This document shows, piece by piece, positions 1 through 1,418 of a stretch of DNA of 1,418 bases (position 1 is the first letter of the stretch; the number at the start of each line of letters is the position of its first letter). Origin of the DNA: Enterobacteria phage TuIa. The position numbers and the translations under genes were made by a program. Location: sequence record AJ621579.1, one strand, 5' to 3'. Under the pieces are notes generated by a model. That model worked only from the letters and a program-made list of their open reading frames with translations. It made no database searches and was not told the origin of the DNA.

Positions 1-23
1 GGAAAGGTTGTTGCATAATTTTA

Positions 24-48
24 GGGAGACTTCGGTCTCCCTTTTGTG
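24..48 (+). terminator. Rho-independent terminator: 7-bp GC-rich stem GGGAGAC/GTCTCCC with a TTCG tetraloop, followed by TTTTGTG
   Basis: Read directly: 24-30 GGGAGAC, 31-34 TTCG, 35-41 GTCTCCC (perfect inverted repeat), then T-run 42-45. On the minus strand the hairpin is followed by an A-rich rather than U-rich tract, so it is oriented to stop a + strand transcript from an upstream gene. Confidence 0.7.
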
Positions 49-60
49 CGTTTAGGGCAG

Positions 61-106
61 AAAAAGTTAAAAAAGGTGTTTACTCTCCTGTAGGATGTGT
101 TACTAT
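61..106 (+). promoter_or_regulatory. Sigma70-type early promoter (T4-early-like): A-rich UP-like tract, -35 GTTTAC(T), extended -10 TGtTACTAT
   Basis: A-rich tract 61-76 (aaaaagttaaaaaagg); GTTTAC at 78-83 (hexamer TTTACT 79-84); TG at 98-99 followed by TACTAT 101-106; spacer 16 bp. Predicted transcription start near 113-115. Located immediately after a terminator and about 45 nt before the ORF1 start. Confidence 0.6.
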
Positions 107-140
107 AGACTTGTACCACCTAATCGATAAAACAAACCGG

Positions 141-144
141 AGAA
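141..144 (+). promoter_or_regulatory. Shine-Dalgarno site (GGAG) for ORF1
   Basis: GGAG at 141-144, 4 nt (aata... spacing region aataaa overlaps) before ATG 149-151; A-rich spacer typical of T4 translation initiation regions. Confidence 0.75.
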
Positions 145-148
145 TAAA

Positions 149-514
149 ATGAACTACATCAACTTCGAACGTAAATATGTTTCTAACGGTATCGCTGGTT
201 CTTCTGAAGTTATTTGCTTATGGAAACACGAAAACGGTACAGATTGTGAAATCGAACAGTGCATGACTCCTAATTACGTTTATATGCGATTTGAAAACGG
301 CATCACGGTTTCAATCACGATGGAAGGTTCCAACTTCAAAATTGCATTAGATGACGATTTCCGTCAACGTGATTTAGGTACTCATCCTTGCTGGAACGGT
401 GTTAATCGTAAACTTCTGGTTAAAACTTGGATTCGTCATATCCTGAGTAACCGAGCTAAACCTGAACATCTCGAAGCAATCTTTGATGTAGTTCTTAACG
501 AATTCGATATCTAA
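149..514 (+). CDS. Hypothetical phage early protein, 121 aa, no recognisable motif (ORFan candidate); contains a Cys/His cluster
   Basis: ATG start with GGAG SD, TAA stop at 512-514. I re-translated the whole frame by hand and it matches the ORF track. Codon choice is T4-like (cgt, ggt, aaa, gaa, gtt, tct preferred). Sits directly downstream of the early promoter. Confidence 0.8.
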   Translation: MNYINFERKYVSNGIAGSSEVICLWKHENGTDCEIEQCMTPNYVYMRFENGITVSITMEGSNFKIALDDDFRQRDLGTHPCWNGVNRKLLVKTWIRHILSNRAKPEHLEAIFDVVLNEFDI

Positions 515-520
515 TTTAAC

Positions 521-538
521 TGGGAGCTTCGGCTCCCA
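521..538 (+). promoter_or_regulatory. Intercistronic GC-rich stem-loop with UUCG tetraloop and no U-tract; likely RNA stability/processing or attenuating element rather than a full terminator
   Basis: 522-527 GGGAGC, 528-531 TTCG, 532-537 GCTCCC, with an extra T521/A538 pair. Followed by ACTGAGGAAATT, not a T-run. Near-identical to the hairpin at 24-41. Ends 3 nt before the ORF2 SD. Confidence 0.55.
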
Positions 539-1220: not shown

Positions 1221-1418
1221 ATGAAATTTTTAATAGCACAAACAGTCCAATTAAAAGGTGTTGGAATTCCTGGGATGATTTTTAAAGTTCTTCATGAATT
1301 TAAAACCGCCGCTGGAATTATCAATGAAGCGTATGCTGTTCAATGGGTTGATGGGACTTCTGACATACGTATGGGTAAAGAGTTATCTCCTATTAAAGGT
1401 TTAAAATGTCTGAGTTAG
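1221..1418 (+). CDS. Hypothetical small phage early protein, about 65 aa from ATG 1221 (ORF track starts at GTG 1209, giving 69 aa); function unknown
   Basis: Open frame 1209-1418 ending in TAG at 1416-1418, the last bases of the window. ATG 1221 is preceded by a purine-rich GTGGA/GGA (1209-1213) at SD-like spacing. The GTG at 1209 lies only about 7-8 nt downstream of the predicted transcription start with no SD, so ATG 1221 is the likelier start. Has its own dedicated promoter. Confidence 0.6.
   Translation: MKFLIAQTVQLKGVGIPGMIFKVLHEFKTAAGIINEAYAVQWVDGTSDIRMGKELSPIKGLKCLS

Follow-up and report, generated by a model that had tools for sequence, protein, structure and literature searches.

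A stretch of 1,418 nt from Enterobacteria phage TuIa (AJ621579.1; hereafter the window, by which the whole stretch is meant) carries two very similar hairpins, GGGAGACTTCGGTCTCCC at 24-41 and GGGAGCTTCGGCTCCC at 522-537, both read directly on the + strand, and between them lie a promoter-like element, an SD and ORF1 (149-514). The locus raises the question whether the two hairpins are a DNA repeat that delimits ORF1 as an exchangeable single-gene cassette, as had been proposed in a first-pass annotation of this DNA, or whether their likeness has another source. The best explanation overall, to which we give a probability of about 80%, is that they are ordinary conserved RNA stem-loops at gene ends and not recombination copies.

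In a megablast search of 50,697 phage records, 672 matched the window, the best being Escherichia phage NRG-P0074 (Mosigvirus, RB69-like) with 97.4%, and in the interval from 30.9 to the ligase gene 30 the window and this genome share 97% identity. In annotated relatives the corresponding segment lies between rIII/30.9 and the DNA ligase gene 30, and we assign the window to the gene 30.9-30.3 early region of a Mosigvirus (a T4-like, RB69-type coliphage), an assignment beyond which the analysis has little import. By megablast, homology to Tequatrovirus covers positions 139-556 only; it begins at the 30.7 SD and stops 4 nt beyond the start codon of the following gene. The window opens with the 3' end of gene 30.9 (1-18, + strand, stop TAA at 16-18), which aligns collinearly with 30.9 homologues annotated in NRG-P0074, SA79RD and RB32.

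The hairpins themselves, and their position on either side of the promoter-like element, the SD and ORF1, are as the first-pass annotation had described them. Their common motif, GGGAG N0-2 CTTCGG N0-2 CTCCC, has two matches in the window against 0.00 expected from 200 shuffles, and both fold stably as RNA compared with shuffled controls (-14.1 kcal/mol, z -4.2 for hairpin 1; -13.1 kcal/mol, z -2.9 for hairpin 2). The two sequences differ by the loss of one A-T stem pair and match at 16 of 18 positions with two 1-nt gaps; the longest exact stretch that they have in common is 6 nt (CTTCGG). A longer exact direct repeat, the 10-nt ATAAAATGAA at 144 and 572, also brackets ORF1.

Hairpin 1 (23-53, core 24-41, + strand) is formed by AGGGAGAC-UUCG-GUCUCCCU followed by UUUGUGCGUUU, with the U-run TTTTGTGCGTTT (also written UUUUGUGCGUUU) directly 3' of the stem. 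It fits the anatomy of an intrinsic terminator (GC-rich stem, U-run, sense strand, 5 nt past the stop of 30.9), and three GenBank records annotate a terminator at the orthologous site; a terminator scan of the window did not list it, because maximal extension of the stem uses up one T. Terminator/promoter cassettes of T4-like phages have been described as PeSLs (promoter-early stem-loops; Arbiol et al. 2010, PMC2839356; Comeau et al. 2014, PMC4122927), and we infer that hairpin 1 is both the intrinsic terminator of 30.9 and the stem-loop of such an element.

Positions 23-151 (+ strand) match the published layout, with the stem-loop, an A-rich stretch (60-76, upstream of the predicted promoter), the predicted early promoter and, at the 3' end, the SD GGAGAA (139-144) and the ATG of 30.7 (149-151). 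The predicted promoter is of the T4-early type (78-106, + strand; GTTTAC at 78-83, 17 nt, TACTAT at 101-106); counted from TTTACT (79-84), with a spacer of 16 nt, it fits the TTTACW and TAYWAT boxes of PMC4122927. A generic sigma-70 scan missed it, so that it is inferred from this consensus. The same geometry is found in other PeSL copies of NRG-P0074, a genome in which six hairpins precede early promoters of the GTTTAC...TATAGA type together with an SD, and window positions 23-151 align to these six hairpin-promoter-SD units with z values of 5.8-14.4 against shuffles. The element is intergenic (30.9/30.7) in the rIII-to-ligase region, where gene content varies among relatives; like the published PeSLs it recurs in the genome, occupies variable DNA and adjoins a gene-precise deletion. 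PeSLs have been proposed to mediate insertion, deletion and replacement of small genes, which was shown in part by mini-circles, with crossovers mapped between SD and -10 box, between -10 box and ATG, or within the stem-loop (PMC2839356, PMC4122927), and the deletion junction in the window is of the second of these kinds. There are also differences: no promoter follows hairpin 2 (12 nt from stem to ATG), so that it is at most a "half" PeSL; and the gene between the two hairpins is conserved and not an ORFan.

ORF1 (149-514, + strand, 121 aa) is gp30.7, a conserved T-even gene of unknown function (Pfam PF06919, E 1.4e-50; phrog_1582). By tblastn it was found in 994 phage records, at full length in 991 and as one copy in each, from phages of Escherichia, Klebsiella, Enterobacter, Yersinia, Salmonella and Serratia. 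All 23 loci collected by similarity to the window have it in the same place (18 close loci and four distant genera are among them; in one, G2285, it is truncated), and it is present in 31 of the 33 loci retrieved independently through the 30.8 profile. The remaining two are very distant metagenomic contigs (L167 and L168), too diverged to inform on a loss bounded by hairpins. By this distribution ORF1 is to be regarded as a conserved core gene, and the suggestion that it was recently acquired or exchangeable does not survive. The first-pass annotation had also named a comparison of synteny as a check and a universal ORF1 lacking indels bounded by the hairpins as the result that would speak against it, and this is essentially what the loci show: no such indel was found among them, the mapped junctions lying at an SD-ATG repeat and within a coding sequence.

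The first of these junctions concerns gene 30.8. NRG-P0074 has 442 bp that are absent from the window, comprising gene 30.8 (Pfam PF06019) and an early promoter, P2, which carries a strong stem-loop across it (-19.5 kcal/mol); the same segment is missing in AV109 and G2285. Left of GGAGAA the window follows the promoter P1 of NRG-P0074, and right of it P2/30.7, and this switch argues for an exchange within the SD-ATG repeat GGAGAAYAAAATGAA. In relatives, 30.8 and 30.7 are each preceded by the same SD-start 15-mer (one mismatch at most); in the window, the SD and start of 30.7 (GGAGAATAAAATGAA, 139-153, + strand) form the junction at which 30.8 and the downstream P2 are missing. Since the 30.8 family occurs in 1034 records, its absence from the window is a derived deletion. 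The layout without 30.8 is found independently in Klebsiella phage Wolf_ER13 and otherwise, among GenBank phages, only in AV109 and G2285; an exact search of IMG/VR with the P1-30.7 junction of the window gave 0 matches. In the window, AV109 and G2285 the upstream regions are nearly identical and the 30.7 alleles differ. In G2285, an ATGA microhomology marks the fusion of codon ~39 of 30.7 with the middle part of 30.5, and hairpin 2 is removed, so the region tolerates deletions unrelated to hairpins.

A further loss is suggested by the end of the window. ORF3 (1221-1418, + strand, 65 aa) is a homologue of gp30.5 (67% identity to 30.5 of RB32 by tblastn), and its 3' end overlaps ATGTCTGAGTTAG, a sequence that looks like the beginning of 30.3 (MSEL; 14 nt are visible at the window end). 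Because the 30.5 homologue runs into a sequence like the start of 30.3, gene 30.4 is probably missing from this phage, and here too the junction would be a start-codon repeat. In T4, deletions between short direct repeats are known, by illegitimate or short-homology recombination (Singer et al. 1982 and Albertini et al. 1982, cited in PMC2839356 and PMC4122927; Mosig et al. 1998), and the loss of 30.8 (15-nt SD-ATG repeat), the fusion in G2285 (ATGA) and the probable loss of 30.4 resemble them, with the difference that the repeats used here are translation-initiation sequences and not hairpins. As a local detail of use to others, the indels map to repeats of ribosome-binding sites and start codons and not to stem-loops.

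The conserved 30.7 may be described as a fixed anchor flanked by two variable slots. The upstream slot is either empty or holds 30.8 (two alleles with 37% identity), alone or with one or two additional ORFs, and the downstream slot holds 30.6, ORF2 with a promoter, 30.6 plus ~310 bp, or other ORFs. ORF2 (550-1164, + strand, 204 aa), an accessory gene of unknown function in the slot of T4 30.6, is followed directly at its stop by a predicted strong, near-consensus promoter of the early type (1165-1194, + strand; TTTACA-18-TATAAT, 11 of 12 consensus positions). It has no Pfam match, belongs to phrog_17531, occurs in only 120 phage records and shows weak similarity to its positional counterpart in Serratia phage X20. 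That ORF2 might be a diverged 30.6 was rejected, as the two share no BLASTP similarity.

If the hairpins are not where the DNA is exchanged, the question is what has preserved them. Both were found at orthologous positions across several genera (18 + 4 + 33 related loci compared). The orthologue of hairpin 1 stands 5 nt past the 30.9 stop in all loci compared, and every lineage has a UUCG hairpin with a T-run after 30.9, with varying stems (GGGAGAC/GTCTCCC, GGGACTC/GAGTCCC, GAGGACTCC/GGAGTCCTT). The orthologue of hairpin 2 lies 4-18 nt past the 30.7 stop in Mosigvirus, Tequatrovirus, Winklervirus and Jiaodavirus, with the stems GGGAGC, GGAGGC, AGGGGC, GGGGC, AGGGC and GGGCC; its loop is mostly UUCG, but one clade has GAAA and others have UACG or UUUG, replacements that all retain a stable tetraloop. 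In alignments that are small and anchored on the loop, and hence biased towards structure (the sites being defined by orthologous stop codons), 100% of the cells of hairpin 1 are paired and five of its eight stem pairs have changed on both sides, and for hairpin 2 the values are 88.6% and five of seven pairs, with a covariation score reached in none of 500 shuffles. The closing C-G pair is invariant (10 of 10 variants of hairpin 2 and 5 of 5 of hairpin 1). In the PEi20-like lineage no hairpin was found after 30.7 in the loci compared; hairpin 2 is therefore dispensable. The compensatory changes in the stems, together with the tetraloop replacements, point to selection on the RNA structure and not on a DNA repeat. 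Because the orthologous stems of T4-type phages (GAGGACTCC after 30.9 and AGGGGC after 30.7) are unlike each other, the likeness of the two hairpins is specific to the lineage of the window and is not itself conserved.

Genome-wide counts were made in NRG-P0074 as the closest complete genome. The motif occurs there six times (+ strand at 7065, 23358, 41097 and 42038; - strand at 15032 and 85251), so that it is not confined to two sites, the other outcome that the first-pass annotation had said would speak against it; all six copies are on the sense strand and at gene ends. With stems of at least 5 pairs, TTCG-loop hairpins number 37 against 10.3 +/- 3.3 expected in Markov simulations; about 20 of the 37 are GC-rich, and a few lie inside annotated coding sequence. 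The GC-rich hairpins outside coding sequences are all on the transcribed strand and nearly all a few nt past the upstream stop (one at 76 nt), and this strict orientation is the behaviour expected of an RNA element. Some of the gene-end hairpins carry a U-run (after rIIB, gene 32, 30.9 and others, hairpin 1 belonging to this group) and others directly abut the next SD (42037, which corresponds to hairpin 2, 57425, 78814 and 32423). The C(UUCG)G hairpins of T4 mRNAs were reportedly called "extraordinarily stable" by Tuerk and colleagues in 1988 (PNAS 85:1364; summarised in PMC4371310). Both hairpins of the window share with them the UUCG loop, the C-G closing pair, the GC-rich stem, the intercistronic position and the sense strand, with no substantive difference, and may be taken as Mosigvirus examples of this class. 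The UUCG tetraloop itself was originally discovered in T4 mRNA (PMC4371310). A search of Rfam at a permissive threshold gave sub-threshold matches only, to the terminator tails of unrelated sRNA models.

Hairpin 2 (521-538, core 522-537, + strand; UGGGAGC-UUCG-GCUCCCA) is intercistronic and has no U-run in its tail (ACTGAGGAAATT / ACUGAGGAAAUU); the other lineages have at most 3 U. Between it and the downstream SD lie 2-6 nt, a spacing kept in at least four genera. Of the 31 loci retrieved through 30.8, 26 bear the hairpin, and in each of these it is followed by YUGAGGAAA. This spacing suggests that the hairpin acts in the RNA, at the junction of the two genes. In the window, the SD is GAGGAAA (541-547), followed by the ATG of ORF2 (550-552; both on the + strand), and the hairpin-plus-SD unit is kept regardless of the next gene. 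No promoter for ORF2 was read in the window between hairpin 2 and this SD, so ORF2 would need read-through of hairpin 2. Hairpin 2 might be a true weak intrinsic terminator that ends the early transcript past 30.7, as the corresponding site carries the annotation of a rho-independent terminator in SA79RD (WebGeSTer) and Kha5h and its stem is GC-rich with a UUCG loop; yet the resemblance to intrinsic terminators that hairpin 1 has in its GC-rich stem, its U-run and its annotation in relatives stops, for hairpin 2, at the missing U-run and at a downstream gene that relies on read-through, and we consider this role unlikely. The role we favour is that of a protector of the 30.7 mRNA against 3' exonucleases or of a mild attenuator.

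Three further readings assign the hairpins a part in the movement of genes. Hairpin 2 with its SD (YUGAGGAAA) could be a promoter-less "half PeSL" and a preferred crossover for swapping the gene after 30.7: the hairpin-SD unit is followed in at least four genera by 30.6, ORF2, a 148-aa ORF or a 160-aa ORF, the megablast homology between the window and Tequatrovirus ends at 556, only 4 nt beyond the ATG, and degraded PeSLs that keep the stem-loop alone have been reported near indels (PMC4122927). The GGGAGC stem, however, is found with ORF2 in 4 of 4 cases and with 30.6 in 0 of 15, and in AV109 the identity drops immediately past the 30.7 stop, so hairpin 2 may travel with the downstream block; the replaced block reaches the 30.5 and 30.4 alleles and is therefore not a single cassette, and the conservation of the unit is explained equally by an RNA function tied to 30.7. 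Such a crossover is thus quite doubtful. A wider form, which would extend the PeSL idea, is that promoter-less gene-end hairpins could be portable linkers, swapped or gene-converted between loci. The hairpin-plus-SD unit kept after 30.7 despite the changing downstream gene, and the identical 18-mer and 16-mer hairpins at five separate gene ends of one genome, would agree with this, but no chimeric stems and, in other lineages, no consistent homogenisation within genomes were seen, and we rate it as rather improbable.

By far the least probable, with only a very slight chance of being correct, is the proposal that the hairpins are themselves repeats at which crossover occurs and that the promoter and ORF1 are a recently acquired single-gene cassette. 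It can draw on the dispersal of the motif in NRG-P0074, on a crossover inside a PeSL stem-loop that was seen experimentally in RB49 (PMC2839356) and on a locus rich in indels. Against it stand the fixed place of gp30.7, the mapped junctions, which lie elsewhere, the mere 6 exact nt shared by the two hairpins and the dissimilar orthologous pairs of T4-type phages; in addition, all stems are perfectly complementary, with none of the chimeric arms to be expected from crossover between diverged stems. What stands of the proposal is its more general part, that short conserved boundary elements enable gain and loss of single genes, since this has been published as PeSL shuffling, hairpin 1 lies in such a cassette and the 30.8 deletion adjoins it; what falls is the choice of ORF1 and the hairpins as the units. 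As an idea, cassette shuffling was already known, and the first-pass annotation had in this respect rediscovered the published PeSL model (PMC2839356, PMC4122927).

On the preferred reading of conserved gene-end stem-loops, hairpins 1 and 2 would be independent members of a genome-wide, sense-strand C(UUCG)G class just past T-even stop codons, and their likeness would come from a shared structural constraint, which calls for a 5' arm rich in purines, a C-G closing pair and a UUCG tetraloop. By means of its U-run, hairpin 1 would terminate transcription arriving from rIII/30.9, and the PeSL at 23-151 would drive 30.7 directly in TuIa, because 30.8 and the second promoter were deleted by exchange between the near-identical SD-ATG sequences (GGAGAAYAAAATGAA). 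Hairpin 2 would block 3'-to-5' decay or weakly attenuate transcription, setting both the end and the stability of the 30.7 message, and would leave the downstream SD free.

Three of the six GGGAG-type copies in NRG-P0074 are identical 18-mers, and six exact copies of this type in one genome amount to more sharing than structural constraint alone obviously predicts. A general concerted evolution of hairpins within a genome was considered and rejected, as genomes such as L015-17 have three different stems at the three sites. The survey behind this took in IMG/VR genomes and their terminators downstream of genes 32 and 52; in several lineages, gene 32 is followed by GGGAGAC-UUCG.

Relative to its closest relatives, the window precisely lacks 442 bp at positions 139-153, comprising gene 30.8 and the second early promoter (compared with 2640-3095 of the related locus L001). 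The junction of this loss lies inside the SD-ATG repeat GGAGAAYAAAATGAA, which is found ahead of both 30.8 and 30.7. The layout without 30.8 is shared by AV109, G2285 and the Klebsiella phage Wolf_ER13. The second early promoter, P2, precedes 30.7 in most relatives (L001 3022-3062) and is missing from the window; it carries a 9-bp inverted repeat (GGTACAGGT ... ACCTGTACC) across the spacer and the -10 box that folds at -19.5 kcal/mol (z -3.4), as in the RB49-type arrangement of PeSL, the published cassette of stem-loop, early promoter, SD and ATG in T4-like phages. The promoter that the window does have shows merely a degenerate version of this repeat (z -0.6).

Gene 30.4 seems to be absent from the window too. 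All relatives compared carry this gene; at window 1395-1418 the end of the 30.5 homologue overlaps ATGTCTGAGTTAG, which matches the start of 30.3 (MSEL...), and 30.4 therefore appears to be missing, as judged from just 14 nt before the window end. In phage G2285 (L027 1201-1425), a natural deletion has fused 30.7, at about codon 39, with the middle part of 30.5 and kept the reading frame, the fusion point being an ATGA microhomology, and the deletion has removed hairpin 2 together with the entire slot after 30.7. Phage G2285 thus does not need 30.7 for its growth.

The slot after 30.7, held by 30.6 in T4, is occupied in about 120 Mosigvirus records by ORF2 (550-1164 in the window; 204 aa), which has no Pfam family and whose sole PHROG is its own (17531). 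ORF2 is weakly similar (E 5e-4) to a gene of Serratia phage X20 from the same slot; considered as a possible relative of 30.6, it proved unrelated. Within its coding sequence, at 944-978, lies a hairpin that resembles a terminator and has a T-run (GACGATGAAAAATACATCGTC + TTTTTATCT; -10.6 kcal/mol, z -3.2); this hairpin could be a chance occurrence or an internal attenuator. The first base past the ORF2 stop codon begins a near-consensus promoter with no stem-loop ahead of it (TTTACA-18-TATAAT, 1165-1194; 11 of the 12 consensus positions). T4-type phages have no promoter at the equivalent position, because there 30.6 and 30.5 overlap.

In NRG-P0074, the closest complete genome, the identical 18-mer GGGAGACTTCGGTCTCCC stands at three unrelated gene ends (15032, 23358 and 41097), behind a tail-fibre gene, gene 32 and 30.9, and the 16-mer GGGAGCTTCGGCTCCC at two (7065 and 42038), behind a topoisomerase gene and 30.7. 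The GGGAG-type stem is favoured in this lineage. Such stems contain both GGAG, the motif of the RegB nuclease, and CUCC, a sequence similar to the anti-SD. Three further UUCG hairpins of NRG-P0074 (57425, 78814 and 32423), downstream of uvsW, wac and nrdB, lack a U-run and abut the SD of the next gene, as does hairpin 2 (522-537), and seem to form a sub-class of their own among the hairpins at gene junctions. Some related loci (L015-L017 at about 3375-3395, L155/L156 and L012/L151) retain the stem at the site orthologous to hairpin 2, behind 30.7, but have GAAA, UACG or UUUG as the loop in place of UUCG, a natural swap between the two classic stable tetraloop classes.
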